DNA of 64,000 bases from Craspedostauros australis. Lineage: Eukaryota. Position numbers and translations under genes: made by a program. The notes below the pieces were generated by a model. That model ran no database searches. It worked only from the letters and a program-made list of their open reading frames with translations, and was not told where the DNA came from. Below are positions 19,986 to 43,332 of the stretch, piece after piece. Within the stretch, counting starts at the first letter, position 1. Every line of letters begins with the position of its first letter. The stretch covers positions 248,001 through 312,000 of the forward strand of contig JALAGF010004837.1 of NCBI GenBank assembly GCA_030167865.1, read 5' to 3'.

Positions 19986-20588
19986 TGCTCTTCTCTTTAT
20001 CGTCCTGCGTCGTGCGTCGTGCGTCTTGGTTTTGTGTCTCTCTTGTCGCTCTTGTCGCTGAGTAACGCAAAGATGTCTCCTGTGTCCTCTACTGTGACCG
20101 TTTTGTCAGCGTTGTGGTGTTGGCAACCGTTGTTCTGTTTGTGTCGTCTTCGTGTTGTGGCGAAGCGTTGAGGGAAACATCTGCACTCATCGTGAGAAAT
20201 CGGCGAAGCCTTTTTGATTGCCAAGATCGCGGTCTGGTGACCCAAACTCGTGACTACCGATCCTCTCCTGTCACGAACACTAACGTCTTTGTCGTTCTTG
20301 CAGCTTCTTCTCGTCTAGTCTGTCCGTCACTCCCACTACATTCATTGATCCGCTCGACCCAACACATATCAGTCATTTTTTGGCGCCAAAACTGGGAACT
20401 CATCATCTCCAGCGAAAACGCTCGTTCCTTGTTGTCTGCAGTTGTTGTTGCCCCGATGTTCCGATGGACATGTGATGACGACGAAAGCCACGCCATTGCG
20501 CTCATGCACGAGTAACAAGTGAGAATGCGACTCGCCGAGGTTGACCATCACTCACTCACTCACTTGCGCACTCAAACGCACTCACACA

Positions 20589-21506: not shown

Positions 21507-21655
21507 CGACTTGGCAGCACTTGCACGCGCGCAACGGAGTACCCTTGTGGAAGATTGGAGATGCCAAGGACCAGCCACAGACAAAGCTACAGTCAAAGCT
21601 ACTCCAGTTTACAACTACAACTACAATTACAATAGCTCCGCCGATTTTATCGCCT

Positions 21656-23095
21656 CTAGTTGCTTTGCTGGATTTCATTCTGCGCGGCAGCTTTTTGCAT
21701 CGTGGTCGACACTGTGTTCTTTGTGACATCTGCCACAGCTCGGATGCTGGCCTTCCTTGCCAAAGTCACGGGGCAGCTAGGTGCAGCTTCTGTCCCATTC
21801 GCAGCATCCTGGGTCCCATTCGCAGCTTCGATCTGCAGGTTCGTTTGGTGCTGAACGACATGCTCATGGATGCAGGCCTCTCTTCCCTTCTGACGTGCGC
21901 TGTGGACAAGATCGACGATCGCATCGCGCAACAAGTCGCTGTCCTTCTCCTCGTCCCAAACCTTGGAATGGAGAAGGAACAGCACAAGCCAGCTGGGGAG
22001 GTACCACAGCGACGTGAGGAAGACCTTGCGCGCGTTGGCGTTGGTCCTCTCCTTCTTGAACTTGTAGGCACGGTGCAGGGCGTAGGCGTTGAGCGCGATG
22101 CCTTCCAACGCGAACATGGAACTGGTGACGCCGGCGTAGGTGGTGAAGAAGGGGACGGTGGACAGATACGCCGCGTATCGCAGGATGATGTTGGCCGTCC
22201 TCTCTCCGTCCGGCTCCATGACGGGGACCATGGCGAAGCCGCCGCGCTTGTAATCCACCCTGTGCATGTAACTGAGCGCGAAGAAGTGCGGCATCTGCCA
22301 CAGATACAGCGTCGTTCCCAGCACCATGGCGTCCACATCGAAGAGCGATCCGCCGGTCGCCGCAGTCCAACCCATCAGCGGCGGAATGGCACCCACAACA
22401 GCACCCACCCAAGTATTGTAAATGGACCTCGGCTTCATGTAGGTGTACAATCCCGAGTACAGCGCAATGTTGCCCACGCCCAACGCCGTCGTGACAGGAT
22501 CCGTTCCGAACCAAAGAAGACCAGTCCCCGCCGCAGCCCATGCCGACGCCGCCAGCGACGCCTCGCGCATCGACAGCGTGTTGGTCACCAACGGGCGTTG
22601 CTGCGTTCGTTTCATGCGCGCATCACGATCCACCTCGAATATCTGATTCCAAGCTGCCGCGGAAGAGGAGCACAGCGCGGTGCCGATGACGCAGCAACCC
22701 GCGATGCTGGCCTGCTCCCACATCGGCCCTCCGGCCGCAACGAAGCCAGCCGCCGTCGTCGCCACCACCAGCGCGGAGAGCTTGGCCTTGGCGAGTTCCG
22801 CGTAAGCTGCAGGTTTGGTCTGCTTCTTCGCATCGGACTTGTTCTTGCCTTCGTCCTCATCAGCGGAAGCATTGTTAGTAGCATTGCTAGTAGCATTGCC
22901 AGGCGGAACGGGAGTGGCCATGCGCATTGGCTGTCTGCCATGGTCGTCGACGCCGGTGGAGAGGATGCGAGCAGCTCCCTGCCATCCAGCAGCGGCGACA
23001 GCGGGAGATGGTCGTGTCACATCCAATGATGATGACTGCGACAACCGCAGAATGCTTCTCGTTCTCCGTCTGGAGACGGCTATGACGAATGACAT
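21656..23095 (-). CDS. COX10: Protoheme IX farnesyltransferase (heme O synthase), mitochondrial
   Basis: NQIFEVDRDARMKRTQQRPL, YTYMKP..NTWVGAVVGAIPPLMGW, LWQMPHFFAL..RVDYKRGG; Arg/Ser-rich presequence. Confidence 0.93.
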   Translation of the reverse strand: MSFVIAVSRRRTRSILRLSQSSSLDVTRPSPAVAAAGWQGAARILSTGVDDHGRQPMRMATPVPPGNATSNATNNASADEDEGKNKSDAKKQTKPAAYAELAKAKLSALVVATTAAGFVAAGGPMWEQASIAGCCVIGTALCSSSAAAWNQIFEVDRDARMKRTQQRPLVTNTLSMREASLAASAWAAAGTGLLWFGTDPVTTALGVGNIALYSGLYTYMKPRSIYNTWVGAVVGAIPPLMGWTAATGGSLFDVDAMVLGTTLYLWQMPHFFALSYMHRVDYKRGGFAMVPVMEPDGERTANIILRYAAYLSTVPFFTTYAGVTSSMFALEGIALNAYALHRAYKFKKERTNANARKVFLTSLWYLPSWLVLFLLHSKVWDEEKDSDLLRDAIVDLVHSARQKGREACIHEHVVQHQTNLQIEAANGTQDAANGTEAAPSCPVTLARKASIRAVADVTKNTVSTTMQKAAAQNEIQQSN

Positions 23096-23099
23096 GGCT

Positions 23100-23140
23100 G
23101 TGATGAACGATGTGATGAACGATGTGATGAACGATGTGAT
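23100..23140. repeat. 12-bp tandem repeat (GTGATGAACGAT)x3+ just upstream of the COX10 start
   Basis: Exact units at 23100, 23112 and 23124. Confidence 0.9.
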
Positions 23141-23928
23141 GTGATGTACACAATGCCTGGTGCTATCTGCTGCTATCTGCTGCCCTGCGTCCGAGTACTA
23201 TAATGATTTGGATACGGTCTGTTTGAGCACGAGACACGAGTAGTGCGGAGACGATGACAACCAAGAGGATCAAGGCGGCTCCTGCTCTGGATCTTCGTGC
23301 TTGTGTTCCTCCGAATGGATACACGTACCAACACTCAGTTGTTGTTCCAAGGTTCGGCCGCTGGACAGTTGTCGTTGGCCAAAGCGAACAGATCGCGTCA
23401 CGGTGCTGGTGACAACGACGCTGACGAAAGCAAGAAAAGAAGAAACGGTTTGTTGGTTTGCGGCGAGGAAGCCCAGAACGAACGAATCATTCGTGATTAA
23501 ACCACGTGACTGCACAAACACGACGACACCGTGATCGCGAGTGTCTATGACAGATGCTGTAAATGAAGCTAGAGAGAAGGAGAGACGCAAGGACTGCCGC
23601 ACGTGAGGGAGGAGAGGACGAGCTACAGGCACCATACAAGCGCAAGCATGGCAACACCGAGAAGGCGGAACAGCAGGTGCACACTAATAATCCGGACTGG
23701 CATGTAGAAGCCCGCTGCAACATCGTCGAGTGTTCTCACTTGTATAGCTGTGCCTCAGCGATGCTCCAAATCCAAACGTCGACCGCTTGCGAGCCAACAA
23801 TCCCCGCTATTTGTGCTCCATTCCATGCCAATTTGTCCCTCCTCCGTTGTGACCTGCGTACGGGAGTAAGAGAGGCGCATCGCTCTGGCCATCCTGTCTC
23901 ACGTCCAATCATTTACCTCTTGCATCCA

Positions 23929-24843
23929 TCACTTGTGCGGCTTAGTGACAGTTATCAGCATTCCCAATGACACTCCCGCGATGAAAGACATGCCAATGTG
24001 CATCCAATTCGTTTCAGATCTTCGAGAAGCATCATGCGCGGAATGTTCGTCGGCTGCTTTCGAAGCTGGGGCTGCGTGGTGGTAGTTCTCCGTGACTGGC
24101 TCCGAAAGGAAGGAGCTGCGTTTCAGCTTGGTCAATCGGCGCTTCAGCTTTGGTTTCGGTGATCTGGACGGTTTCGACATCTCCTTCTCCAACCACACGA
24201 CGGCTTCTTCGGAAGTCGAGACGAAGCTGATGATCTCATCCGGTTTGTGCTTGATCAGATCATGCTTGTACCCATTCTCCAGCATCGTCCGGAACGGCGC
24301 GTAATACCCGTCCACATCCACGCACACGATGGGCAACGTCGTCATGCCCAAATTGCGAGCACACGCCATCTCCCACAGCTCATCCCACGTGCCGGGCCCG
24401 CCTGGCAGCACGATCAGCCCGTCGGCATGTTCCACGAGCAACCGCTTGCGCTCTTGCAGGTCGTTGCCACTGGCAATGAGGATCTCGCGCTTGGGTCCGC
24501 CCTCTGCCGCGGGTTTGGTGCTGAACACTTTGTGGGCGTGCCCGTCGCGATCCAACCAGTCGCCGCCGTCCACCAGGAACATCTCGTGGATGACGCCCAG
24601 GATGTCGCCGTTGCCGTTGCAAGCGCCATCGTTCAACGCCGCCATGCATCCGAAGGATCCCGCGCCGTTGATGCAGACGTGGCCTCGTTTGGCGAGGATG
24701 TATCCCAGGGTGTACGCCTCCTTGCAAAAGCGCGGTGGTGTCTTGGCCGACGAGGAACCGTAGCATGTCACCCTCAGCGGTTTCTTGGCCTTTTCTTGCA
24801 GCAGAGGCAGTTCATCCAGCGCGGTTGCAACAGCCTCCATCAT
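23929..24843 (-). CDS. LOG: LOG-family nucleotide phosphoribohydrolase with C-terminal hydrophobic tail
   Basis: VTCYGSS, GAGSFGCM, ERKRLL, LPGGPGTWDELWE (PGGxGTxxE), DGYY; tail WMHIGMSFIAGVSLGMLITV. Confidence 0.85.
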   Translation of the reverse strand: MMEAVATALDELPLLQEKAKKPLRVTCYGSSSAKTPPRFCKEAYTLGYILAKRGHVCINGAGSFGCMAALNDGACNGNGDILGVIHEMFLVDGGDWLDRDGHAHKVFSTKPAAEGGPKREILIASGNDLQERKRLLVEHADGLIVLPGGPGTWDELWEMACARNLGMTTLPIVCVDVDGYYAPFRTMLENGYKHDLIKHKPDEIISFVSTSEEAVVWLEKEMSKPSRSPKPKLKRRLTKLKRSSFLSEPVTENYHHAAPASKAADEHSAHDASRRSETNWMHIGMSFIAGVSLGMLITVTKPHK

Positions 24844-25593
24844 TCTTTCTGTGCTATTGTATCGCAGCGGTTGTGGTTGCGATTATGATTATGATCAGTT
24901 GCAGTGTATTGGTCGAGTCCTTCTTGTGCTGGTGATGGTGTGGACGAGGCTGTTTGTGTTCATTCTTGTGGTCGCCCCTCTTTGCTCTGCTTTGGTGTAG
25001 TTGGATGATGGATGATGGGTTGATGTTTTCGGGGGGTCAGGCAGAACATCGGTTTGGTTGGAGTTTGCATTCTACGGTCTATCAGATTAGAGGAACAGAA
25101 TAGTCACAGAGTATCAGAATAGCATCCTGAGAAAAACAGACAAAGCTTGATCCAGTTCACATCACATCACAACCACCTCCTCAGCCAGCTGTTGCTGTCA
25201 ACAACATCGATGCAAAGCTCGTTCATGTGGACCTGAATTCACAGCAGAGCCAAGGATTGGGTCAGCGGAAGGAGCTGCCAGGAGGTGATGGACAAGTTTT
25301 CGTTTGGGGCATCTCTTTCAGACTCTCTCCAACAACGCCGCTAATCTGGACCAGCAACACTACTCGAACAAGGGCGACGACTGTTGCAAACAAGCGAAAA
25401 AGGAACATAATACGTACTCGAGGTATTTGGTTTGTCGCTGCAGAGTCTATGGTTTGTTTACAGCAGGCTACGGCGACTGTCCAACACAATTTGCATCATC
25501 CATGTGCGATGAGTGCGCGTTGCATCTTCCAGGGGTTGCGGTACGAATCGGGGGTACGGAAAAGTTGATTTGCATGGTACTCCTTGTGCGCGC

Positions 25594-29349: not shown

Positions 29350-30282
29350 TCAAAGCTTCCCAACACCACCGAAGAGACTTTGGAACCATTCGTCTTGCTG
29401 CAGGTTGGAAACGCTTCTTCGGGATAACGGGAACGTGAAGTTGACCAACTTGGGGAGCTCGTGGTACCGGATCTTGCGTCCTTTGCTGGCTCTGCGATCG
29501 ACATCCTTGCGTTTCTTTTGCATTTGCTTCTTGGCCAGAAGCGGGTTGTCGTCTGCATTTTGGGTGCTGGATGCGGCATTGAGCACCAAGAACTCCTTCA
29601 GCAGCTGCTGGTACAGTCTGGAATCATCGAATGCGGCGGCTTGTCGCGGCTGCTTCCGCTGAAGTTTGCCGAACTCCACCGTGGACTCGACCTGTCCCCA
29701 GAAGGAGGAATCCACCATCTTGAACTTGTCCTTGCCGCTTCCACCTCGTGTCTGTATCTCCTCCTGGCGTTTGTTGAGCACGGTCTTCCAACGTTGACGG
29801 CAGACGTCGTACTCCTGTTGCAGGACCTCATCCAGCTGTTGCGATGATGACGACTTGATCATTTCGGTGTAGTCCGATGAGACGTCGTCATTGTCATCGT
29901 CGTCATTGTTATCATCGTCGTCATCACCATTCTCTTTGCTGCTGCCCTCCAACGATGCAATGGAGTTGGTGGCCAACGCTTGCCGAATGGGCAGCAGAAC
30001 ATTGAGGAGCTGGTTGCAGACCTTGTCCACCGATTTGGAGTACCTGCCCGTTTCCGAACTGGCCGTGGCGGTCAACGCACGCTGTGCCAGGATGCGGCAC
30101 TCCAGCATCTGGTTGTACACCTTGATCTGGTGGTGCATGGCCTTGGCCCGTTTGGCATCGCGCGTTGCCTTGAGACGGCGCCTGGTCTCCGCCTGGGCAT
30201 CCTCCGACTCGAACGCATCCACCGCATCGAAGACGGAGAAATCGCGTTTGTTGGACTTTGATTTCGATTTGGACTTTGCCAT
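29350..30282 (-). CDS. AATF: AATF/Bfr2 ribosome biogenesis factor
   Basis: LECRILAQRAL, FDDSRLYQQLLKEF, VDRRASKGRKIRYHELPKLVNF (TRAUB domain), FQSLFG C-terminus. Confidence 0.9.
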   Translation of the reverse strand: MAKSKSKSKSNKRDFSVFDAVDAFESEDAQAETRRRLKATRDAKRAKAMHHQIKVYNQMLECRILAQRALTATASSETGRYSKSVDKVCNQLLNVLLPIRQALATNSIASLEGSSKENGDDDDDNNDDDDNDDVSSDYTEMIKSSSSQQLDEVLQQEYDVCRQRWKTVLNKRQEEIQTRGGSGKDKFKMVDSSFWGQVESTVEFGKLQRKQPRQAAAFDDSRLYQQLLKEFLVLNAASSTQNADDNPLLAKKQMQKKRKDVDRRASKGRKIRYHELPKLVNFTFPLSRRSVSNLQQDEWFQSLFGGVGKL

Positions 30283-30790
30283 TGTTGCTATGTGTACAGT
30301 GTGATGGATGGTGGATGATGGATAGTTACTATACAGCGACACTTGCAGTTGTATTCTCTCTCTCTCTCTATTCGTATGATGAGTATGGCTGCGTCTCTTG
30401 ATGCGTCTTCGACCCACTGGCCATCCAACTCAAGGGGGCGGAAAGACCAGCGTGAGAACATGTTCTGTTGTTGTGTGCCAAGCAATGTGGTGAGGGGTGC
30501 AGAAACTGTATTTTTTGGGTGGTTGTTGTTGGCTTTGACTCGTTCGATTACTTCACCGGAACTAAAAGTATCCAAATCCGTCACCTGATGCCGATACTCC
30601 GCTGATGCTTCACCCAGGCACACTCGCCCCACAGCAACACGCAGACACAGTCATCCATAAATCCTCACAACCACCATCGCTCCTCACAAAGAAGAGCGTG
30701 TCCAACTCCAACTGTCTCTCTTCCCGACATCCGCAAGCTTACATCAAGCTTGAGTCGAGGCAAAGTCAGAGCAAAGAACAACGCAAGCCA

Positions 30791-33274
30791 ATGATCTTGG
30801 CAGCCATCAAGATGGTTTCGTTGGCCAAGGTCCTGTCCTCGTGCATCGATGCCAGCCGCCAGGGATGCGAGATCATTCGCGATTACCACGGTGCGGCCAA
30901 CGGCAACGTGCAAGGGAGTCTCAAGGAGGCCAACGAGATCAAGTCCGTCGTCACCCAGGCCGACATTGACGCTCAGAACCAGATCATCGGCACCCTGCGT
31001 CAGATCTGGGGTGAGGATCTCAAGATCGTCGGCGAAGAGGACGGCAGCGCGGATAATACTGCGAAAACCCCGGCGCCGAGTTCGGACGACCTGCCATCGT
31101 ACATCGACGCCTCCATCTTCGGCGACGATGATTCGGTTCCGTTGGAAGAGCTCTGCGTCTTTGTGGATCCGTTGGATGGAACGCGCGAGTTCGTGGAGGG
31201 GCGCCTGCACAACGTGGCCTGCCTCATCGGCATCATGCGCAACCAGCGGTCCATCGCGGGTGTGGTGGGACTGCCATTCCCCGATGGCACCTCGGATTCC
31301 GAGGTCGTCACGTACTATGCCATGACGGACGTCAAGAATCAGGTCGGGCGGTATCCGCCGCTGCAAGAGGACGAGCAGGCCTCCGGTCAGTATGACAACA
31401 CCATCCTGACGGGCGATTCCAGCGACCCCATCCTCCTCAATGCTACCAAGTTCACCAAGCAGTTTGCCGAAGCGGCTGACCTCGGTGCCGAGCACAAGTT
31501 CGTCGGGGGAACGGCCGCCAAGCTCATCAAGGTCGCCACGAACACCGAGAGCATCGCCGTTCTCCATTTCAAGACGGAACAGTGGGACACCTGCGCACCA
31601 GAGGCCTTGCTCAAATCCAACGGCGGCATGATCACGGATCTCTTCGGTGCACCGCTCTCCTACTCTCCCACGCGCCCGTTCGGCAACGTCTTCGGAGTTG
31701 TGGCGTCGAGCGGAGCTGCCATGACCAAGGTCCACCAGCAGCTCTGCGCCAAGATGAGAACGGATCATGCATCCATGCAACGCATCTACGGGGACTACAT
31801 GGGCGAGTACACGATTAGCGACGCCAACGATCAGGAATCGCAGGCGATGGATGTTGCCTACGATCTTGATGGCATTCCGTTGAAGAAAGAAGACTTGCAG
31901 CAGAACATCTTGGACGTTGTTGCGGGACGCACTGCATCATCTTCTGTCCATGATGATACGGCAGCCGCGAAGCCAACTTTGCGAGGATACTCCGTTCCAG
32001 AATCGGGTGCTTGGCGCGGTCTCATGTCCACGGGATGTCGCCTCATGTTGGACTGGGACGGTGACACTGTCGCAGAATCAGCCGCAGACGGAACTGCTTC
32101 CGCCCTGCCGAAGAGCGTCTTTTACAAGCGCATCGTCATGAGCAACCTCGATCATTCGCGCAAAAAGCTCGTCATCTCGCCGCACAAGGTCACCCGCGAC
32201 GTGCGATCGTACCAGATCGAAAGTGGCTTCCTCACCAGCGACGCCTGTCAGAAGGGACTCATCGGAGAAGTGGGCCTCAACATCAACAAGGTCTACGCCA
32301 GCACCTTGCGACCCATCGAAGGCCCCACTCCGAAGGAACAAATTGAAAGTCGCTTCTCCTTACTCTTGGAAGATTTCAACCAAGACGATGGTTGGAAGCA
32401 GCAGTGGTTGCTGGATGAGACGGCTGCCAAGGCCGCCCTCGATACGCTGGCGTCCATGCATGCCTACTTTTGGGCTGGCTCCGACTTTTGGCAAAAGGAC
32501 GGTGGCAGACAAGGCGAGGAGTTGGAGAAGGTGATTTGGCCCAACGGATCTTACACCCAGCCCCAGTTGCAGGGCTTGTCGCAGCTCACAAGAATCGATG
32601 CCGGTTGGAGGAAGAGGTTGCCGGACTTCGAAGAAGCGTGCAAAAGCATTCTGGAATTGAACGATGTCGATCTCGCCACGATTGGATCTCGTTTGGAAGG
32701 CATCGCTGCCATCACGGGCAGCCAGGCGCATCCATTCTCCGACAACAATCCTGCCTCAAAGGATCTGCAACAGTACCGCACCTTCATCCACGGCGATCCC
32801 AAACAAGCGAATCTGTTCTTCCGATCACAAGATGGTGCGGCATCACCTGAAGTTGGTTTGATCGATTTTCAATGGAGCGGGTTTGGATTGGCTGCGAGCG
32901 ATGTTGCGCACTTCATCAGTGCCGCCGTGCATCCGTCTCATCTTTCCTTCGATGGGTCCAAGGAAACCATGTTCTTGGATTATTACTACGAGCAGTTGAC
33001 GTCCAAACTGGTCAAGTACGGCGTGGCCAAGACAGCGGAAGAGGTTCAAACATCAGTCTTCCCACGCTCCGTCCTGCAGCATCAATACGAAATTGCCGTG
33101 CTGGACATGTGTCGGTTGGTGTTTGCGTATGCCTGGCAACGATGGAAGCCGGAGACGGAGCCCACCGCTGCCTCGCTCAATCGCAATTCGTACAACAAGT
33201 CGTTGGACAGTGCGTTGTGGCTCATTACTCGATGCAGTCAGTTGTTGTCCAAGCACGAGCAGACATTAAAGTAA
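30791..33274 (+). CDS. Inositol monophosphatase/BPNT-family phosphatase fused to an EcKinase/APH-choline kinase-like domain
   Basis: N-terminal VTQAD, GEE, VDPLDGTREF, WDTCAPEA; C-terminal HGDPKQANLFF and IDFQWSG; one uninterrupted ORF. Confidence 0.85.
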   Translation: MILAAIKMVSLAKVLSSCIDASRQGCEIIRDYHGAANGNVQGSLKEANEIKSVVTQADIDAQNQIIGTLRQIWGEDLKIVGEEDGSADNTAKTPAPSSDDLPSYIDASIFGDDDSVPLEELCVFVDPLDGTREFVEGRLHNVACLIGIMRNQRSIAGVVGLPFPDGTSDSEVVTYYAMTDVKNQVGRYPPLQEDEQASGQYDNTILTGDSSDPILLNATKFTKQFAEAADLGAEHKFVGGTAAKLIKVATNTESIAVLHFKTEQWDTCAPEALLKSNGGMITDLFGAPLSYSPTRPFGNVFGVVASSGAAMTKVHQQLCAKMRTDHASMQRIYGDYMGEYTISDANDQESQAMDVAYDLDGIPLKKEDLQQNILDVVAGRTASSSVHDDTAAAKPTLRGYSVPESGAWRGLMSTGCRLMLDWDGDTVAESAADGTASALPKSVFYKRIVMSNLDHSRKKLVISPHKVTRDVRSYQIESGFLTSDACQKGLIGEVGLNINKVYASTLRPIEGPTPKEQIESRFSLLLEDFNQDDGWKQQWLLDETAAKAALDTLASMHAYFWAGSDFWQKDGGRQGEELEKVIWPNGSYTQPQLQGLSQLTRIDAGWRKRLPDFEEACKSILELNDVDLATIGSRLEGIAAITGSQAHPFSDNNPASKDLQQYRTFIHGDPKQANLFFRSQDGAASPEVGLIDFQWSGFGLAASDVAHFISAAVHPSHLSFDGSKETMFLDYYYEQLTSKLVKYGVAKTAEEVQTSVFPRSVLQHQYEIAVLDMCRLVFAYAWQRWKPETEPTAASLNRNSYNKSLDSALWLITRCSQLLSKHEQTLK

Positions 33275-33704
33275 AGTCACATCTGTTCGCGTGGTACGAG
33301 TACCGGAGTGGCATTATACATGCTGTGCTGCAACATGTTGAGTTGCCTTGGACTGCGGGGTTTTCTGAAGGGTGTCGCAATTGGGCTGTGGTTGTCCTCC
33401 TGTCACATGTTGGGAATGGTCGTTGATACGAGTTGTGGGAATCCACGATGCTTCCACGGTTGATGATTGGTGCGGAGACTTTATTGTACCAGTAGCATGC
33501 TAGTATGCAACCATACCTCCCTTCAGCCATGACATACCAATGATGCACTCGCTTCCACATGTTAGTGCGTACGCTTCGGGTACGGTGGTCTGGACCGTCA
33601 TCGTTCATTGCACGAAATAACATAGATCTAATTCCTTCATTCACGCGCCCATCCTTGCATCAGTGCGTATTTGTACACTATCATTCACATCTCGTCGATG
33701 AGGT

Positions 33705-36700
33705 CTACAATGCAATTTCATCCTCGTACTTTTGGCTCTCCGTCGCTTTGATACCTGCTTTGGATGCCTTGATATCGGCGTGATTCGGTTCCAGATGCTC
33801 CTGCCGGATCCTGAGGGCAATCTTGTGATGTCGCATGGCATCCTCGAAGGAGCCTTGTCGATTGTGCACGGAACCCAGCCAGTAATGCGCCTCGGCTGTG
33901 CCAAGATCTTCCGTCCCCAACATCGCCTTGCGGATGGTGACGGCGCGCTCGAACTCATTCTGCGCATCGTCAAATTCGTGATCTTCATTGTACAATCGGC
34001 CCATGTTGAGACGCGCGGTCGCGGTTTGCAAATGCTGCTCTCCGTACAGATGAACAGCGGCGGCCAGCGCCTGTCGGTAGGCCATTTTGGCTCCGGGGAT
34101 GTCATTCTTGCGCAACAGGAGCTCCGCTATCTGATTGCACGACTCCGCCGTCTTGGGATGATACTTGCCCAGCAGGCTGTTGCGGATGCTCAACGCCTTG
34201 CTGAAATTTTCCAATGCCAACCCCTGATTGCATTTGACGATGTAGACGTCGCCGATGCATTGGTAGGTGTCGGCGACAAGCGGATGATTCTCGGTAACGA
34301 TGCGGACCAGGATGCTCATCGATTTCTCGTACTCGCCCAACGGAATATCGGCGGCCTTTTTGGTCTTCAATTTGATGGTGGCAATGCAATTCATGGCGAC
34401 GGCAGTGGATGGATGGTTCTTTCCATGGATGCTCTTGCGAATGGTGAGAACGTGCTTGTAGCATTGCAACGCTGCACCGTAGTTGTGAGTGTCTTCGTAG
34501 GCATGGCCCAATTGTTCAAACGCATCCGCCACAGTGACATTGGTTTTGCCCAGCTCATTGATGAGGATCGTGATGGCCTTGCGGATGGTCTCGATGCCAT
34601 CCTTGGAGGACGACTTGCATTTGGATTTTCCCATCTGGATCATCGACGCCGCGCAGTCAGGATGGTCCGTGGTGCCCTGCACATTCTCTCGAATTTGCAA
34701 CGCTTTGCGGTAGTACTGTTCTGCCTTGATGTAGTGCTCCTGACGATATTCCAAATCACCCAAACACGTCATGGATTCTGCGACGGACGGGTGCGTCTTT
34801 CCCAACGCGGATTCCCGAATGGATAACGCCGTTTGAAAGGATTCCTTGGCCTGGCCGAGATCGCCCTGCTCAAGATGCATGCGTCCGATACTGGCGTGGG
34901 TCGGCGCCACGTCTTCATGCTTCTCACCCAGCACCGATTGCTGCACCAGCAAGGCCGTCTGGTACTCATCCAACGCGCGCTTCGTTTCTCCCTTGTGAGC
35001 CAAGCAATGTCCCACGCAGCTGTACGACTCGGCCACCAGCAGATGGTCCTCGCCTAGCAGACGTTCTCTAATTTGCAATGCCATCTGATGCTCCTTGAGC
35101 GCCGTGTTGTAGTGCCCCTTTTCTATGTACACCGTGCCCATGGAAGCATGGACCGCGGCGACCTGCGGATGCGAATCTCCCAACTTCTGCTTGTAAATGT
35201 CAAATCCTTCCCGCAGGTAGAGCAACGATCCGTCCGTGTCCGTTTGCTTCAGCAGCACCATTCCAATGAGGATGTAGGTGGCCGCCGTCTTGACATGATC
35301 CTTCCCGATCGTCGTTTCCTCCATGACGAGAACTCGCTTGAACAATTCCAACGATCTCTCCGTTTCGCCAAGATGCTCGAAGAAGAGACGACCGAAGAGC
35401 TTGACTTGGTCCGGATCCTCCGCGTTCATGAGGAACTCCATGAATTCATCGTCAATCCTGCCGACCTTGTGGAGGATGTCAAGATCGCCGAGCACGTTCT
35501 CCTGGTTCCTGCCCGTGGATTCTGCAAAGTAGGGACGGAAGAATGGCATGTTGCTGCTGATGCCGAAATGCAGCTTGAAGTCGCGGTGGTGGACCTGGAC
35601 CTCGCAGGTGTGCGCAAGCTCATCCTTGTAAGGCACGGATATGTGGTAGATGATGTCACGGTAGCCGTCAAATCTGGGAATGGCGAATCGGTTGTTGCAG
35701 TCCACGATGTGGATGTTCTCGCGGAACCACTTGTTGACGTCCGACATCTGCTTGATCGTTTTGCAGACGATGCCGGCACGCACGACGTCGAAGATCCATG
35801 ATTCGCCGGGGCCCGGGTTGCGAAATGCGAACTGCTCCTGCGCCTTCTCTGAGGCGCGCACACGTCGTTTGATGGGTGAGAAGATGATGTCCTGCGCGGA
35901 GAGACCGTTGACGCTGTCGACAAGCTGCGTGATGAGCGTTTTGAATGAGGATTCCGCCTGTTCGGCCGCGCCGTAGAGGTCCGAGAGGGTCTTGACGCGC
36001 CTGCCACGAAGATCCTGCTGCTGGTAGGCCTGTTTGTGAGTGACGCCGTCTCGTTCCAGCAAGCCCTTGGTGTGTGATTTGACCTTCATGTTGGCAAGCT
36101 TGCAGTGCGGATCCACGACGATGTTGCGTTCGTCACCAGAAACAATGTTCTCAAAGAATTGGCCGAGACGAGCGAAGAACTTTTGCTGCTTGGCGGTGAC
36201 GGCGGAGGATTCTGGGTTGATGTTCTCGAAGGGCGTGAGAATGTCCACATCGAACGCATCATCGTCGTTATCATCCAGCTCGAGCTCCTGGAAGGCGGAT
36301 ATGTTGCGTTGTGACAGACGTTTATACTGCGACGACATCCGCGACGATCGTTTGTGGTTGCTTCCGCCGTTGAGAGAGGTGTTGTCTCCATTCGCTTGCC
36401 CATTTCCATTGGCCGAACCGCCCCCGTTCGTCTTGCTGGAGCGCTTGCCAGCCTTGGCCTTGGGACTGAGGATCTTCGGAGGTGGGACGGCTGACTTCCT
36501 GTCGTGGCTGCTGCCTCCGGCGAGGTTGGCGGACGAGTTGCGGCGCGTGTTTGCTGGCCTTGGGCTCGTGGTGGGCGTCTTCCTGTCGTGGTTGCTGCCG
36601 TTGGCGAGGCCGCTGAAGGATGCCTGGCGCTTGCTGCCGGGCCTGTCCTTGTTCTTCTTCCCAAGCGACGCGTGGTCCTCTTCGGCCTCCTCATCGTGGG

Positions 36701-37319
36701 TCATGGCGAAGTTGAGGTTGGCCACCGAGGCTGAGAAGTTGGCCGTGGACGCCGCCTCGAGATCGCTGACGCTGTTGATGTTGTCGTCGATGGCCTTCTT
36801 GTACGCCACCATGCGGCGCTCTATGGTTTCGATGGAGTCTGCCAGCGGTTCGAGGATGGCGTACTTCATGTTGTTGACCATCGTCATGAGCACCTGCAGC
36901 TCGCCACCCAGCTCGCCGTAGTCCTCATTGCGCTGTATGGTGTTGACCATGGCCGTGAGGCGCTTGTCGGTCTCCTTCCCCGTCTTGATCTTCTTCTTGT
37001 CCTGGAAGGACTTGGTCATGTGCTGTGCCTTCTTGCATCGTATGATGGCCTTTGCGACAGATCGATTGGGGTCAGTTGGTGGATGCGGGTGGAGATGCAG
37101 GAGTAGATGCAGGAATAGATGCAGGTGGAGATGCACTGTGTGAGCATGAATGAGAGTATGGGCAGCCCGTAGCGGCAACATGGGCAGTAGTAACCGTATG
37201 GCAGTCCAGCATCAATCACCAAAGATGCACAGGTGCGGAAAGTCCAGCCCACTCCACTTCGGCCCCAAAGGATTGGCTTTACTCACCTTCTCGATGATGC
37301 TGTCTGGAGCCTTCCCCAT
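33705..37319 (-). CDS. RelA/SpoT-like nucleotidyltransferase domain + long TPR array (paralogue A); exons 37319-37287 and 37049-33705
   Basis: PIKRRVRASEKA..FDVVRAGIV..NRF..GYRDIIYH..CEVQVHH followed by about 14 kinesin-light-chain-type 42-aa TPRs. Exon 1 MGKAPDSIIEK|gtgagt, CTGAC branch point, aag|GCC acceptor in frame. Confidence 0.8.
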
Positions 37320-38595
37320 GGTGCGAACGTCTTGGTGTGGATGTGTCTCCTTTCCTTCGGTTTTGTTGCGATGCTCTTGCTTCTGTTTCAACTGTTGATG
37401 CTGCGGTTGATGTCCCCCTTCTGGCGTACGAGCTACCAACAAGTATGAGCTGCGAGTGCGAGGCGCCAGTGATTGCGGGATTGGGTTGATGGGACAGCTG
37501 AGAAGTGGACAGGCAAGAAGAATAGAGAAGCTGGGGAGGCTGGACAGGAGGCGGTCGTTTGCGTTGCGCAAGTCCACGTTTCACTCTGCGCTTTGGTCAA
37601 GCTGCCAAGGAGACAAGATCGAATGGTATGGTCGAGGCAATGCCGAGGTGATTGATTGTGGTGCTTCTTCCTTGTGGCTTGTACTACTACTCGTCCGAAC
37701 AACTCTCCAGATGTGAATGCCTCTGCTTCCACTTCGGGTGCATTCACAGACAAGAGTGCAACCAACGCGTTTGTCGGAAGCAAGTGGAGCGCTGTTTTCG
37801 CGCCCAAAGTGTCCACGACAGCGGTTTCTTTGCTGTGTCTTTCTGCCCACAGTGGTGCTTTGGCCACTGTTCGTGCGAAAACGCTGGTTGGCGCGTCGGT
37901 ATGTCATCTACGGGTATGTCCAACAAAGAGACATCGATGACAGCATCTGCGACGGTGGGAGGGAAAGGATCCGTGTCCCACCAGTCACGGACATCGCAAA
38001 GGTCACCATTTCATGCCCCAAAGTGCACCCCTTTTCGTCACAAATTGGTTGTAACATCGCCTCTTCGGCAAATGACTGCAACATCAACGCGATCATCGTC
38101 ATCATGGATACAAGCAGCAACAACAGCAACAACAGCAGCAGTAGGAACTCCTTGACAATTGAACTTGTTCGGTCGGGTTAGTAGTTTGGGTGGCGTTGCA
38201 TTTCGCTGCGTTGAGAGGCATTCGTAGGAGCAGCAATGATACTCTACTCCACTCCCTACTCGGATGCAGATGTGTGTTTATCATGCATTATGGTCTACCT
38301 GCTGCATGGCACGCTGCGGGTAGAGTGCTGGGAGAGTATCGACACTAATGCACAGCGCTCCCTTCAGTGCAAGCCGATGGTTGCTTCGGTGTGCGTCGAT
38401 AGCGAGGATCGCATCCGGTTCATTAACATGGAATTCCCTCGCCACCCAACCACCCAGTCATGTTACTGCCCAACTATCCTTCCGTGTCGACATAATATAT
38501 GTCATGATGGTGGTGGTGATGGAAGTGGTGGTGAATGAATGGGGCATGGAGAGGGAGGTAGAGCATTGGAGTTGCTTGGAGTTGCGGTGGTAATC

Positions 38596-40836
38596 TTAAT
38601 CCTCTTCTTCTTCGCTTCCGCTCTCTTCTCCTTCGGCGTATTCCTCGTCATCGTCATATTCCTCTTCACTGTGGCCTTCCTCTTCTTCTTCTTCGTCATC
38701 CTCGTCCATCAGACCTTCGCGCTGACGATTCTCATTCAGATGGATGCTCTGCAACGACGCGCGCGTGTCTGCGTTTCGGGAGCCCAGAATCTTATCGCGG
38801 ATGGCGTACGCATTTCGGTGCATCGCCAAGGCGCCGTCATAGTCGCTCTTCTGGTTCAGAATGAAACCAACGTTGGCCATGGAGGCGGCGACTTCCGGGC
38901 TTTCCTTGCCGCACACGATCTCGCGGGTGCGCAACGCCTTGCGATGTCGGGCCTCGGCCTCTTCGTAGTCCTCGACCTCGCCCAGCAGGATGCCGATCTC
39001 CGTGTGAGATTCGGCGGTCATGGGATGGCTCTTACCAAACACTTCCTCGCGGATGGCCAGCGCCATTTCGTACTCCTCCATGGAGCCCTCGAAGTCGCCC
39101 TGCTGGTGCAGCACTCCGCCGAGCAGGCTGTGGGATGCAGCGACGTCGGCGTGGTTCTCGCCCAGCAACGACTCCAGGATGGACAGGGACTCGCGGTAGG
39201 CCGCGAGCGCACCCTCGAAGTCGCCCAGCTGGCACAGCGACTCGCCGATGTGCTGGTAGGAGTCGGCGACGTCAAGATGGTCCTCACCCAGGCAGCGTTC
39301 CCGGATCACCAGAGCCTTGCGGTACTGCTGCAGAGCACCACGGTGCTCCAGCAGATCGTTGTTGGCCTCGCCGCGTTTTCGGATGGTGTTGCCCAAGTGG
39401 CTGCGCGTGATTGCGACTTCCGGGCTGTAGGCGCCGAACACCTCCTCCTGGATCTCCAGGCACTTTTGCAGGTTCCGCAGCGCGTTGTCGCAGAGCCCCT
39501 TCTTGGCCTGCACCAGACCAACGGACTGGTAGGTGGCCGCCGTGTCGGGATGCATCTCGCCGATGGACTCCTCCTGCAGCGTGAGGACGCGGGTGAAGAT
39601 CTGCAGGGATCGGTTGTAGTCGTCCAGCTTCTGGTCGAACAGCTTGCCGAACACCGTGAGCTGGTCGGGGTTGTCGAAGCTGAGAATTTTGTCCATCGTC
39701 AGATCGTCGATCTTGCCCATCCTGAGGAGCATGTCGAGGTCCCTCATGGTCTCGATGGTGGTGCGGTTGGGCCCGGCGAAGCAGGAGCGGAAGTACTTGT
39801 AGTGGTTGAGCGTACCCAGCATCTTCTCGATGTTGTTGGCCTCCTTGTGATGGACCTGGATCTCGGCGACGAAGAAGACGTTCTCCTTGTACTGCCAGTC
39901 GATGAGGACGTGGTAGAGCAGGTCGCGGTATCCGCTGTAGGCAGGCGAGACGAATCTGTTTTTGGACTGCACGATGTGCGCCTTCTTGGAGAGGAACTTG
40001 TTGACGCTCTCCATCTGCTTAATGGTCTTGCAGGTGATGCTGCAGCGCAGCACGTCCCACAGCCACGTCTCCGGCGGGCCTGGCAATCTGGTGAGGTACT
40101 CCTCGCGCGCCTTCTGGTTGGCGCGGTCGCGCGGCTTGAGCTCGACGATCTTGGCGTCGACGTAGTCCATGCCCTTGACCTTGTCCACGATCTTGTCGAG
40201 CAAGTCGCGCAGGCTCTGCTTGATCTGGTAGGCGGCCTCGTAGACCTCTCCTAGGTTGCGTGCGATGTCGCCCTCCGCATCCTGCTGCTGGTACTTGGTC
40301 TTGTAGGTGCCGTCCTCCTCGATGAGTCCGCCGGAGTGGTCGATGACCTCGATCTCCTTGAGACGTCCCTTGGGGTCGATGCGCTCCATGCGCTCCTCCA
40401 CCTTGCGCTGCACGTTCATGAAATGATTGAGGCGTTCGTAGAACTTCTCCTGCTTGGCAAGGAGCAGGGCGCTTCCTTCTTCGTCGTCCTCCTCCTCGTC
40501 GTCGCCGTCCATTCCGCGAGCACGCGCTCCGTTGGTCTGGTTCGCGCCGCCGTCATCGTCTTCCTCTTCGTCGGAGTACACCTCGCGTTGCACCATGTCA
40601 TCCGCGAGCGGTGCCAGTTCGTCGTTGACCTCGGAATCCTCCGGCTCTTCGCCTTCATCTTCATCACTGCCGCTGTCGTCGCCGCCGCCGGCTGTGCTGC
40701 TTGCGACGGAGGTGGCCTCCTCGGCTTCGCTGCTGTCATCATCGTCCTCGACGGAGCTGATATCGACGGACTCGCCACCGCTGCTGCTGCTGTCGCTGTC
40801 ACTGTCGCTATCGCTGTGCATGTTGAAGATCGTCAT
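38596..40836 (-). CDS. RelA/SpoT-like nucleotidyltransferase domain + TPR array (paralogue B), acidic termini
   Basis: LKPRDRANQKA..WDVLRCSI..KNRF..GYRDLLYH..AEIQVHH followed by about 7-8 42-aa TPRs; clearly homologous to the neighbouring gene. Confidence 0.82.
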   Translation of the reverse strand: MTIFNMHSDSDSDSDSSSSGGESVDISSVEDDDDSSEAEEATSVASSTAGGGDDSGSDEDEGEEPEDSEVNDELAPLADDMVQREVYSDEEEDDDGGANQTNGARARGMDGDDEEEDDEEGSALLLAKQEKFYERLNHFMNVQRKVEERMERIDPKGRLKEIEVIDHSGGLIEEDGTYKTKYQQQDAEGDIARNLGEVYEAAYQIKQSLRDLLDKIVDKVKGMDYVDAKIVELKPRDRANQKAREEYLTRLPGPPETWLWDVLRCSITCKTIKQMESVNKFLSKKAHIVQSKNRFVSPAYSGYRDLLYHVLIDWQYKENVFFVAEIQVHHKEANNIEKMLGTLNHYKYFRSCFAGPNRTTIETMRDLDMLLRMGKIDDLTMDKILSFDNPDQLTVFGKLFDQKLDDYNRSLQIFTRVLTLQEESIGEMHPDTAATYQSVGLVQAKKGLCDNALRNLQKCLEIQEEVFGAYSPEVAITRSHLGNTIRKRGEANNDLLEHRGALQQYRKALVIRERCLGEDHLDVADSYQHIGESLCQLGDFEGALAAYRESLSILESLLGENHADVAASHSLLGGVLHQQGDFEGSMEEYEMALAIREEVFGKSHPMTAESHTEIGILLGEVEDYEEAEARHRKALRTREIVCGKESPEVAASMANVGFILNQKSDYDGALAMHRNAYAIRDKILGSRNADTRASLQSIHLNENRQREGLMDEDDEEEEEEGHSEEEYDDDEEYAEGEESGSEEEED

Positions 40837-41871
40837 TTTGTCGTCGGTTCCTGCGATTGAAGGGGAGCTGATGGCCCTGTTGTTGGCTTCTTCGATTCAC
40901 CCTATCGAGTGGCAAATCAAATCGCGCTGTCCTCGCCTGTTGGCCACCTCAGATGAGATGATGCCAAGCGACAATTGCGTTGCTTGAAGCTTGTGTTCGT
41001 GTGTATGGTATGTTATGGTATGGTAGATGATGTCTCGTTGATGCTGGCCACGGAGAGGTCGACAGCGCGGTTCAATAATACTCCACTGGTACGAGAGCCG
41101 CGGATAGTGGTGGACGAAGCCAAGAGATGCGACTGCGGAGAAGCGAAACACTCCAAAAGGGGGAGAGGAGGAGAGAGAGGCGAAGGTGATGGGGGACACG
41201 AGACAGAGAGGCAGAGAGCCTTGGAGAACGAGGAGGAAAGATGTGAGGCACCACAACCAACGAATCACAACAGAGGATCACAACAGAGAGAGGGAGAGTG
41301 CGGACAGAACCGAACAAAACCAGATCGAAGGATTCGGCAGTCATAGTCATTTCGACATCGTGCCAGTTTGCCGTGTGTTGCCACAAAAACCCAGGGTTTT
41401 TTCAGTCATGTTTGTTTTAGTCATCGTGATCGGTGGTGTGCGTTTGTCCGCCTCAACTGAATATTGGTGCCCATTTCAAATGAGTCATACTCACCCACGA
41501 CTCGCCGAAGCGGCAGGTTGAAGTATCCTCACTTCAGACAATCTCGTGAAACCGAAATCTGTCGGAATCCAATGTTCAAATCCTCGCTGCCAATCGCCTG
41601 CAACACTCGCAGCTGTCCACCTGTTCCGGTGTTTCTGCACCAAAGATCTTTCTTCTTCTCTTGTCCTGTCTGCCTCCATCTGTCTCTGTTTCGTGTGTCG
41701 TTTCTTCTCTTCCTGTCCTTTTGTGGTGGATTTCGCGTGTGGGTGTCCTTCCTTTCACCGTCTGTCTTCGCGGTGGATGTTGGTGTGTTGATTGATGCTG
41801 AGCTGTGACAAGTTCACACCCACAAAAAGTCAAATATCCCCCTTTGCAAGTCAACCATCAACACCATCAAA

Positions 41872-42495
41872 ATGAAGCTCGCCATCGCCGCCCTCCTCGC
41901 CGGTTCCGCCGCCGCCTTTGCCCCATCCCAGTCTGCCAAGACCACCTCTGCCCTTCAGGTCAGCGAGCTCGAGCTTGGTGTCACCGAGCCACTCGGTGTC
42001 TACGACCCACTCGGATGGGTTGAGACCCAGCCAGAGTCCTTCGAGCGCCGTCGTGCCGTCGAGCGCAAGCACGGACGTGTTGCCATGGCTGCCGTTGTCG
42101 GATGCATCGTCCACAACAACCACATCGTCTTCGACGGATACCTTTCCCCATCCGCCGGCCTCAAGTTCTCCGACATCCCAACCGGAACTGACGGAATCCG
42201 CGCCATCCCAACCGCCGGACTCGCCCAGATCTTGGCCTTCTTCGCCCTTGTTGAGCTCGCATGGATGCCAGCCTCCAAGTACGACGGAGACTACGGCGTT
42301 GGCTACTTCGGTTCCAACATCGAGGACCCAGAGGAGAAGGCCCGCAAGCTGAACGTCGAGCTCAACAACGGACGTGCCGCCATGATGGGTATCTTCGGAA
42401 ACATGGTTGCCGAGCAGCTCACTGGCCAGACCATGTACGAGCAGTACGCCGCTGGACACATCTCCCCATTCGGTGATGGCCAGGGTGTCTTCTAA
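41872..42495 (+). CDS. Fucoxanthin-chlorophyll a/c light-harvesting protein, Lhcf15-like, intronless
   Basis: GSAAAFAP presequence; YDPLG, ERKHGRVAM, ELNNGRAAM; strong codon bias; close paralogue of 25594-26639. Confidence 0.95.
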   Translation: MKLAIAALLAGSAAAFAPSQSAKTTSALQVSELELGVTEPLGVYDPLGWVETQPESFERRRAVERKHGRVAMAAVVGCIVHNNHIVFDGYLSPSAGLKFSDIPTGTDGIRAIPTAGLAQILAFFALVELAWMPASKYDGDYGVGYFGSNIEDPEEKARKLNVELNNGRAAMMGIFGNMVAEQLTGQTMYEQYAAGHISPFGDGQGVF

Positions 42496-43332
42496 GTACT
42501 CACGCACTGACCACGTGTGTACAGTACAGCTCGCCACGGGCAAGGCCTCACCATGCATCAATTATTGTCTAAGCAATAGTAGTCCTCAATAGTTTTGCAT
42601 AACAACACCGACTGTCTTCATCGCAGTCACGAGCAGATAGTCTTACTTCCTCTCTCTCTCTCCAGAGATCCTGCTGGATACGCCAAAGGAATGGCTACCG
42701 CCACTCTGCCCCACAACGAACGTACTCCAATCCACTTGTACACACGCCAACCATGAGAAAGCGTTCGCTGTTCCACATGCGAGCCCCAAACTTGTGGCTC
42801 TTGTCCGCAGGGGTCTCTTCACGTATCATAAAATAGATCTTACCATGCACATGAGAGCCACTAAGTCCCGGTGACATCACCCAGCTGTTCCAACCTGTCT
42901 GAAGTATCCTGGACTCTGCAGAACATCCATCTGCTGATTGTCCATGAGAACAGGTCAACCAGCTGGATTGACACGATGGTCATCCCTCTCCACCCTCGTC
43001 AAGCCCATTGCCGATGTTGCTGCGAGCAAACCGGTCTTGTGTGGTGTGCATACCCGTTGTTGCAATAGCCTATGCTTCTGCAACTAACCCCAGCATCCTC
43101 TGCTCCAGATCGTATTGTATCACAGTACTCCCATCACCAATCACTCTAATGCGACGACTTGAACTATTCACGAGTTTGCTAGCTGGCTGGAGGAGGTATT
43201 ATGGCATGGTATTATATCCATGGTGAGTTTTTTTCTTACGACGACAACCATACAGATGCATGGTAGACTACCATTAATCAATCATCTGTCGGTTGGTTCA
43301 TTTGTTGCCCGGCCTGGCGCATGCATCCCTGC

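Follow-up and report, generated by a model that had tools for sequence, protein, structure and literature searches.

A putative RelA/SpoT-like synthetase domain joined to kinesin-light-chain-type repeats in two neighbouring genes of the diatom Craspedostauros australis

What kind of domain precedes the tetratricopeptide repeat (TPR) arrays of two neighbouring genes of the diatom Craspedostauros australis, and could it be a synthetase of nucleotide alarmones acting outside the plastid? The question arises from a 64,000-nucleotide stretch of DNA (positions 248,001 to 312,000 of contig JALAGF010004837.1; hereafter the window, in whose coordinates all positions are given), which contains two long open reading frames (ORFs) on the minus strand at 33705..37181 (P0001, 1158 aa) and 38596..40836 (P0002, 746 aa). 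We call the first geneA and the second geneB; with respect to transcription, geneB is the upstream gene of the two. An initial annotation, made from the letters alone, had described them as adjacent co-oriented paralogues combining a RelA/SpoT-like domain with TPRs, and had likened them to immune or stress receptors built of an effector and a repeat sensor. The two proteins are indeed paralogous, with 39% identity over 570 aa (E 1e-124), and no third copy of this type occurs within the window. With moderate confidence we favour the reading that they are non-plastid, divergent pyrophosphokinases resembling the small alarmone synthetases (SAS), joined to a TPR array with an endogenous partner.

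Common to both proteins is a non-TPR domain of about 275 aa (35382-36209 and 39637-40473), followed by a TPR array with a period of 42 aa; the shorter intervals of the initial annotation (about 35590-35990 and 39850-40260) lie inside this domain. The AlphaFold model of the geneB domain has a predicted local distance difference test score (pLDDT) of 93.1 and a predicted template modelling score (pTM) of 0.88, and its top matches in Foldseek are SAS1/RelQ, RelP, RelSeq, RelA, Tas1 and FaRel2, with a probability of 0.99-1.00. VIA-align, a structure search independent of Foldseek, was run over 48,161 chains and placed synthetases of the RelA/SpoT (RSH) superfamily at each of ranks 1-11 (Z 8.4-11.6), among them Tas1 (Z 11.6; 3.0 A over 153 residues), SAS1 (11.3), RelP (11.2) and CapRel (9.9), before falling at rank 12 to Z 5.9 and generic Pol-beta-type nucleotidyltransferases. 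The geneA domain was modelled separately (pLDDT 85.1), and here too ranks 1-11 are all RSH synthetases (Z 8.6-13.1; rank 12 Z 6.3), the best match being 6fgk with a root-mean-square deviation of 2.6 A over 133 residues. The models thus strongly support the RelA/SpoT synthetase fold for the shared domain of geneA and geneB, as the initial annotation had predicted.

Homology is also detectable in sequence profiles once the repeats are left out. Every one of the nine PDB sequences that the TPR-free profile A4 matches at E<=1 is an RSH synthetase; they include YwaC/RelP (best, 1.2e-9), Staphylococcus aureus RelP, YjbM/RelQ, two streptococcal SAS enzymes and Tas1; with profile A3 TPR matches dominate and YwaC stands at rank 28. 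A whole-protein Pfam scan of geneA and geneB returned only TPR families (TPR_12, TPR_10, TPR_NPHP3 and others), so that the RSH-like domain is invisible to it, and a weak PF04607 match appears, in geneB only, when the domain is scanned alone. Elsewhere in the family PF04607 matches 14 of 39 short members at E<=0.01, and a precomputed match exists for 2 of 68 relatives. An NCBIfam scan of both domains gave nothing relevant, a single-sequence phmmer search of the PDB with the geneA domain gave only a chance match (E 1.4), and the best ESM Atlas scores, 0.83-0.84, are at lead level only, one listed cluster having PF04607 in 34% of its members. On its sequence the domain is a non-canonical RSH member, one that misses the Pfam threshold and has its donor-site arginines replaced.

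The repeat part is unambiguous in both proteins. Pfam recognizes TPR_12 and TPR_10 in geneA (E 1.2e-70 and 6e-56) and in geneB (E 3.2e-48 and 6.4e-41), autocorrelation peaks at offsets of 42 and 84 in both arrays, and the best PDB profile matches of the repeats are the kinesin light chains KLC1 and KLC2 (E 7e-29). The initial annotation had correctly seen 42-aa arrays but had placed them directly after the domain; a helical linker of about 45 aa separates them from the synthetase core. Kinesin light chain shares the 42-aa TPR_10/TPR_12 array with these proteins and differs from them in having no enzyme domain. On the N-terminal side, the core is preceded by a family-specific extension (aa 122-299 of geneB, 39940-40473, and its geneA equivalent), which is modelled with high confidence (pLDDT >90 in geneB) as a long helix followed by a small beta element that carries the conserved stretch YQQQ, and which contains the conserved residues Q184 (210/212) and Y199 (195/220). 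HD, TGS, ACT, NACHT and NB-ARC domains were all absent from the Pfam scan of either whole protein, and for the HD domain, which the initial annotation had likewise reported as lacking in both, no HD-type match was found at E<=1.

The history of the pair was examined in a maximum-likelihood tree of 68 domains. The geneA and geneB copies fall into two clades, each of 17 rows and supported at 100/99; proteins of 1500-2300 aa form a clade sister to that of geneA (97/80), and the geneB clade has a sister clade of its own. Copies of the geneA and geneB clades adjoin in all four pairs examined. For example, a metagenome contig (L008) shows them in the same order and orientation as in the window, another (L014) has them adjacent in divergent orientation, and in Nitzschia sp. 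Nitz4 they are genes 006270 (19464-21530) and 006271 (22256-25383) of scaffold131; on a 7.5-kb contig (L002) a B-type copy is followed downstream by 6 kb in which no A-type copy occurs, the sequence upstream being too short for a judgement. We read geneA and geneB as ancient paralogues that are still neighbours. The terminal branch of geneA is 0.64 long vs a median of 0.21, and the closest relative of its synthetase domain is 58% identical, that of geneB 92%. Either geneA evolved fast in this lineage or the geneA copies of close relatives are unsampled. A complex prediction for the geneA and geneB domains, run without controls and without alignments, scored 0.00 and carries no weight either way.

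Conservation of the arrays bears on what they might bind. Across 54 orthologues of geneB the TPR array is 71.7% identical vs 78.8% for the enzyme core, and across 15 orthologues of geneA the corresponding figures are 41.8% and 60.4%. The highest identity between units of one array is 43% in geneA and 40.5% in geneB, so the units are diverged and not homogenised. In the receptor analogy of the initial annotation, the TPRs would detect a viral or other non-self ligand and release a toxic synthetase, acting by ATP depletion via (p)ppApp or by tRNA pyrophosphorylation, in parallel with bacterial CapRel and with fungal NLRs that have RelA_SpoT effector domains. The fold fits the toxic SAS enzymes (toxSAS: Tas1, a (p)ppApp synthetase, and the tRNA pyrophosphokinases FaRel, FaRel2 and CapRel) as well as it fits housekeeping SAS, Tas1 with Z 11.6 and 11.0 being a top or near-top match and CapRel following with Z 9.9 and 10.0; CapRel moreover joins its toxSAS enzyme to a C-terminal regulatory or sensor part, a conceptual likeness. 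The family is large (849 clusters) and its members shuffle N-terminal domains including COR-A and LRR, as is typical of signalling and immune proteins, and the geneA TPRs are less conserved than the core. In the account of fungal NLRs in PMC4986451 (Dyrka et al. 2014), RelA_SpoT is listed as an N-terminal effector domain, for example in the architecture RelA_SpoT-NACHT-WD40, which offers a eukaryotic, non-plastid RelA_SpoT domain N-terminal to superstructure-forming repeats, in some cases TPRs of the same Pfam type (PF13374).

The fungal proteins described in PMC4986451 have a central NACHT/NB-ARC module, that is, a nucleotide-binding oligomerization domain (NOD), and highly similar, polymorphic repeats, whereas the diatom proteins have no NOD, only the short linker between core and TPRs, and repeats that are diverged from each other and conserved between species; the geneB array is nearly as conserved as its core. 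One-to-one orthologues with conserved linkage across genera do not suggest birth-and-death evolution. The C-terminal part of the diatom proteins is a TPR array only and not a pseudo-Zn-finger antitoxin domain, no antitoxin or immunity gene is apparent near geneA and geneB, where the adjoining genes are ordinary eukaryotic ones, and the bacterial library PADLOC gave two weak matches to different models in two of six proteins (PDC-M34B 4.5e-4, capH 0.031). We therefore regard an immune or stress receptor as rather unlikely for this pair. For geneB an endogenous partner is preferred over a fast-evolving non-self ligand because the repeats are diverged, no NOD is present, orthology is one-to-one with linkage and no PADLOC match is convincing. 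Given the family size and the domain shuffling, a signalling or immune role is possible for other members.

A different alternative is an ordinary plastid RSH4-type (p)ppGpp synthetase that has gained TPRs. Diatom plastid presequences begin with a signal peptide. By a simple hydropathy test neither protein has a signal peptide or a bipartite plastid presequence: within the first 52 aa the Kyte-Doolittle value of a 12-residue segment rises no higher than 0.38 in spliced geneA and 0.13 in geneB, and the N-termini of the orthologues are likewise short and polar. The statement of the initial annotation that there is no presequence therefore stands, although it had overlooked a 5' intron in geneA (see below). 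The geneA and geneB proteins are most likely non-plastid and cytosolic. By comparison, PMC6881373 (Avilan et al. 2019) describes PtRSH1, PtRSH4a and PtRSH4b of Phaeodactylum tricornutum (11099, 7629 and 33947), the only three RSH genes obtained in its BLAST search of that species, as chloroplast-targeted proteins with hydrolase domains and a bipartite targeting peptide, and it treats (p)ppGpp synthesis in photosynthetic eukaryotes as a plastid affair of RSH1-4. The same source relays from Ito et al. 2017 that RSH4 of some green algae has C-terminal TPRs, a precedent for the combination of synthetase and TPRs. Superfamily and organism group are thus shared with plastid RSHs; the latter, as described there, have an intact or degraded hydrolase domain, plastid targeting and strong bacterial synthetase homology, whereas geneA and geneB show no remnant of a hydrolase domain and no signal peptide, score below the Pfam threshold and have a rebuilt donor site. 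The contrast that the initial annotation had drawn with characterized algal RSHs holds, and a plastid RSH4 with added TPRs appears very improbable.

What the non-plastid enzyme favoured here might do has to be read from its active site. For this purpose 231 of 233 family proteins were aligned to the A4 hidden Markov model, comprising 68 close pennate-diatom relatives, 148 diverse representatives and 15 others; counts are taken over the rows with a residue at the position concerned, and numbering follows P0002. Both domains contain the motifs LK..R/RA..KA, D.(V/L)R, NRF, GYRD..YH and E(V/I)QVHH, which include all those quoted by the initial annotation (K..RA..K, D..R, NRF, GYRD..YH, E[VI]QVH), and which are far beyond chance because the same positions are near-invariant across the 231 proteins. 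The enzyme FaRel2 served as reference. PMC11782079 names R64, K66, S70, K74, R77, G93, R95, Q147 and E145 as its donor-ATP residues, D90 as binding Mg and Y128 as binding the acceptor base. The residues kept in the family are the lysines K234 (221/225) and K242 (223/225), the Mg-binding Asp D261 (222/224), the G-loop Tyr or Phe at 303 (217/223), and the Glu-x-Gln formed by E325 (217/219) and Q327 (213/219). The catalytic Asp and Glu are hence conserved, and the same holds on the 148 diverse representatives alone (D261 142/143, E325 135/137). Further invariants are specific to the family, namely N293 (225/226), R294 (222/226), D305 (218/223) and R350 (207/210), and the G-loop is flanked by the basic residues K292 (205/226), R294 and R304 (213/223).

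Based on these observations we propose that geneA and geneB each encode a divergent SAS-like RSH domain, a short helical linker and a kinesin-light-chain-type TPR array, and that the domain would be a working Mg-dependent pyrophosphokinase. The Asp on strand beta2 would hold the metal, the Glu-x-Gln on strand beta5 would take part in catalysis, and the G-loop Tyr or Phe would stack on a purine acceptor. The donor pocket would have been rebuilt, with two ATP-clamping arginines lost and two new invariant arginines placed one turn and one rung off. The most likely product would be a purine nucleotide pyrophosphorylated at its 3' position, as in (p)ppGpp or (p)ppApp. For the TPR array, itself conserved, the most likely ligand is an endogenous and likewise conserved protein or peptide, which would position the enzyme or gate it, and the acidic tails of geneB are candidate built-in pseudo-ligands for its own TPR groove.

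Several points weigh against this proposal. Relative to FaRel2, R64 is replaced by Leu233 (206/225), S70 by Arg238 (202/225), R77 by Asp/Glu245 (150/220), R95 by Ser/Thr266 (187/224) and G93, the Gly of DxxGxR, by Arg264 (220/224), so that five of the eleven FaRel2 positions named in PMC11782079 are replaced in the family; this mapping follows motif spacing and the alignments of RelQ and RelP to A4 rather than a direct alignment of FaRel2. The donor-ATP motifs RxKxxxSxxxKxxR and DxxGxR with both clamping arginines are not present as such, while both lysines remain. Given the replacement of the donor-site arginines and of the DxxGxR Gly, pyrophosphotransfer from ATP to GDP or GTP cannot be assumed, and the enzyme may use another donor, do other chemistry or merely bind nucleotide; the initial annotation, right in its catalytic Asp and Glu, had equated the motifs too readily with those of (p)ppGpp synthetases. 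Scanned alone, the geneB domain reaches 18.5 bits with PF04607 (E 0.0025), below the Pfam gathering threshold of 27 bits, and the geneA domain gives no match. The location call is based on a simple hydropathy test and on orthologue N-termini, and activity, product and partner are inferred. The pseudo-ligand idea is speculative and takes its cue from a property of kinesin light chain. Finally, old tandem duplicates may stay linked through inertia, with no functional cause needed, and the long branch of geneA could mean relaxed constraint in this lineage.

The same replacements lend themselves to the view that the domain is a pseudoenzyme or nucleotide-binding adaptor, an RSH fold that has lost pyrophosphotransfer and serves as a ligand- or protein-binding module on a kinesin-light-chain-like scaffold, for example in cargo or cytoskeletal functions. 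Such a role would agree with the kinesin-light-chain type of the TPRs, and with the CAP-Gly, MSP or CCDC53 domains of some family members, which suggest cytoskeletal or trafficking roles. PMC6881373 reports the Gly beside the first Arg, which is among the residues replaced, as shown to be essential in bacterial RSHs; according to the same paper, that very Gly is substituted in PtRSH4a and PtRSH4b, which nonetheless make (p)ppGpp. Moreover, not only the catalytic Asp and Glu but also the replacement residues R238 and R264 are near-invariant, a pattern expected of a rebuilt working site and not of a decayed one. Decay would not keep catalytic acids and replacement residues invariant, and for this reason our reading is of a working enzyme with a re-engineered donor pocket, whose arginines would be shifted by one helical turn and one beta-rung; we consider a pseudoenzyme unlikely.

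Among the closest known counterparts are the bacterial SAS enzymes RelQ/SAS1 and RelP/SAS2 (5dec, 5ded, 6fgk, 6ewz). Shared with them are the fold (Z 11.2-13.1), the profile homology given above, the Mg-binding Asp, the Glu-x-Gln, the GYR of the G-loop, the two lysines of the helix after strand beta1 and a synthetase domain that lacks a hydrolase domain. The diatom genes differ in being eukaryotic nuclear genes, in the replaced donor arginines and DxxGxR Gly, in the new NRF, GYRD, R238 and R264, and in their additional conserved N-terminal extension and 7-13 C-terminal TPRs. According to PMC11782079, RelQ and RelP oligomerise via a C-terminal four-helix bundle.

If the domain is active, its acceptor could also be an RNA 3'-end, in which case it would pyrophosphorylate the CCA end of tRNA in host translational control rather than in immunity. 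RSH folds support tRNA pyrophosphorylation in FaRel2 and CapRel, and an ordered N-terminal helical region anchors the tRNA near the G-loop in FaRel2, as described in PMC11782079; the N-terminal extension of the present family is likewise conserved and confidently modelled. FaRel2 is, on the other hand, the weakest of the RSH matches (Z 5.5 and 6.2 in VIA-align; Foldseek E ~1e-3), and the conserved basic flanks of the G-loop are a feature that PMC11782079 links to nucleotide acceptors. By that criterion the basic residues near the G-loop lean towards a nucleotide rather than tRNA, and a tRNA pyrophosphokinase seems quite improbable beside the nucleotide pyrophosphokinase that we favour.

The domain combination is not peculiar to this locus. 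An exhaustive HMMER search gave 849 cluster representatives at E<=1e-3, 345 of them at E<=1e-10, the clusters being defined at 50% identity, and TPR_12/TPR_10 follow the synthetase domain in all 20 long members scanned. Taxon names were obtained for a few members only, diatoms and one pinguiophyte; these derive from Nitzschia, Cylindrotheca, metagenome bins of Bacillariaceae, MMETSP transcriptomes and the pinguiophyte Pinguiococcus, and on these few names the family is one of stramenopile algae. Variable N-terminal additions occur in P0149, P0117, P0139, P0153 and P0097, comprising COR-A (Roc-COR type), LRR_6, MSP, CAP-Gly and the WASH subunit CCDC53. The 'TPR-S' sensor model PF20308 weakly matches P0161 (2.1e-5) and has a precomputed match in P0236. 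As for prokaryotic relatives, none of the 31 pattern matches obtained with profile A2 encodes one, the patterns being diatom-specific and of low sensitivity for distant bacterial kin. The source labels are 'tetratricopeptide (TPR) repeat protein', 'expressed tetratricopeptide repeat protein' and 'hypothetical protein', and one relative is called 'Kinesin light chain' in UniRef, much as the initial annotation had foreseen for automated pipelines.

Divergent eukaryotic RSHs have been noticed before. Atkinson, Tenson and Hauryliuk (2011) grouped as 'divRel[S]' unplaced, divergent, synthetase-only RSHs from fungi, Dictyostelium, Thalassiosira pseudonana and P. tricornutum, and ascribed them to sporadic transfer from bacteria; supplement s005 of that paper gives the P. 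tricornutum member as Phatr2 49781, and the words 'TPR' and 'tetratricopeptide' are absent from its text. The present proteins resemble this group in being divergent, unclassifiable, synthetase-only eukaryotic RSHs of diatoms, and differ from it in that the TPR-fused family has hundreds of clusters and a constant TPR fusion, where a sporadic origin was proposed. Phatr2 49781, which is not among the three RSHs of 2019, may belong to the TPR-fused family. Our literature search found no paper on gene 49781, nor one in which an alarmone synthetase is linked to kinesin-light-chain-type TPRs. On sequence and models, we take the family to be a new, donor-site-rebuilt, TPR-fused, non-plastid form of the RSH synthetase kind, with its activity, product and role being what we infer.

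Coordinates are collected in Table 1, which includes a revised model of geneA. Orthologues of the geneA type start about 10 residues ahead of a conserved EKAIIRCKKAQ, and in geneA the Ala codon of AIIRCKKAQ begins at 37049, behind an AG acceptor; joined to exon 1, this gives an N-terminus that agrees with the orthologues P0235, P0071 and P0238. The ATG at 37181 was rejected as the start of geneA, since exon 1 and the 237-nt intron restore an orthologue-like N-terminus. None of the 15 aligned geneA-type orthologues has the His/Leu-rich stretch of 42 residues with which the unspliced ORF begins; being intronic, this stretch was rejected as a presequence. In geneB just the 121 residues of the acidic tail lie ahead of the synthetase domain. 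The whole-protein Pfam scan found no family for the N-terminal helical region of geneA.

Table 1. Features of geneA and geneB in window coordinates (residue numbers refer to P0001 for geneA and P0002 for geneB)
Feature	Position	Strand	Remarks
geneA exon 1	37287..37319	-	ATG at 37319; encodes MGKAPDSIIEK; GTGAGT donor directly after
geneA intron	37050..37286	-	237 nt, GTGAGT...AG; spliced N-terminus agrees with orthologues
geneA exon 2, through stop codon	33705..37049	-	spliced protein 1125 aa
geneA conserved N-terminal helical region	36702..37049	-	aa 45-160; 40.4% mean identity, 15 orthologues
geneA low-complexity Ser/Asn/Gly-rich spacer	36210..36701	-	aa 161-324; not alignable among orthologues
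geneA RSH-like synthetase domain with N-terminal extension and C-terminal helical linker	35382..36209	-	aa 325-600
geneA synthetase core	35514..35906	-	Asp465 35787-35789; Glu527 35601-35603
geneA kinesin-light-chain-type TPR array	33762..35381	-	aa 601-1140; ~12-13 units of 42 aa
geneB single ORF	38596..40836	-	746 aa; in-frame stop upstream of its ATG
geneB acidic Ser-rich N-terminal tail	40474..40836	-	aa 1-121; D+E 38%; 40% mean orthologue identity
geneB RSH-like synthetase domain	39637..40473	-	aa 122-400
geneB synthetase core	39772..40173	-	Asp261 40054-40056; Glu325 39862-39864
geneB kinesin-light-chain-type TPR array	38737..39636	-	aa 401-700; ~7 units of 42 aa
geneB acidic C-terminal tail	38599..38736	-	aa 701-746; D+E 61%

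The only public run that covers part of the region yielded two contigs identical to the window, 33608-34438 and 38175-38981, which span just the 3' ends of geneA and geneB, run on past the stop codons for about 100 and 420 nt, and leave the sequence between them uncovered. The pattern looks like 3'-biased transcripts; the run type is only guessed, and the contigs are not countable as expression. In the read search 38504-38533 and 38637-38709 were passed over as repeats, the second being codons of the Glu/Asp-rich C-terminal tail of geneB. Homologues are transcribed in relatives, some being known from the MMETSP transcriptomes and one carrying the label 'expressed tetratricopeptide repeat protein'.

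The neighbouring genes are ordinary diatom nuclear genes, including one for a chlorophyll a/c-type light-harvesting protein (41872-42495) and an AATF homologue (29350-30282). Adjoining geneA, an 889-aa ORF on the plus strand (30605-33274) combines a domain of the inositol-monophosphatase family (E 7.5e-28) with a kinase-like domain of the EcKL/APH type. The inositol-monophosphatase family takes in 3'-phosphoadenosine-5'-phosphate phosphatases, and a link in nucleotide metabolism between this fusion gene and geneA is no more than conceivable. The longest other ORF of the window has 1434 aa (13466-17770, minus strand). Long antisense ORFs are frequent in this GC-rich window, for example at 38539-40254 opposite geneB and, with 235 aa, at 41851-42558 (minus strand) over the light-harvesting-protein gene; they are probably not genes.

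Beyond the individual proteins we would tentatively raise a wider possibility, on which we remain doubtful: ochrophyte algae may run a cytosolic nucleotide-alarmone system of their own, based on this TPR-coupled, donor-rebuilt RSH family, with a product that is possibly not (p)ppGpp. TPR partners would switch or place the enzyme, and geneA and geneB would form a two-component module.

For the databases, the finding means that hundreds of entries named 'TPR repeat protein' or 'kinesin light chain' conceal an enzyme domain that lies below Pfam thresholds. In animal cells ppGpp has been reported and the hydrolase Mesh1 is present, but no ppGpp synthetase is known there. If the wider possibility of an ochrophyte alarmone system is true, the proteins described here would be the first family of alarmone synthetases of the eukaryotic cytosol. 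The rebuilt donor pocket is a natural experiment in the substrate choice of RSH enzymes. Diatoms are ecologically dominant primary producers, and a large, conserved, apparently non-plastid family with the RSH fold and intact catalytic acids would make alarmone signalling in the eukaryotic cytosol directly testable.

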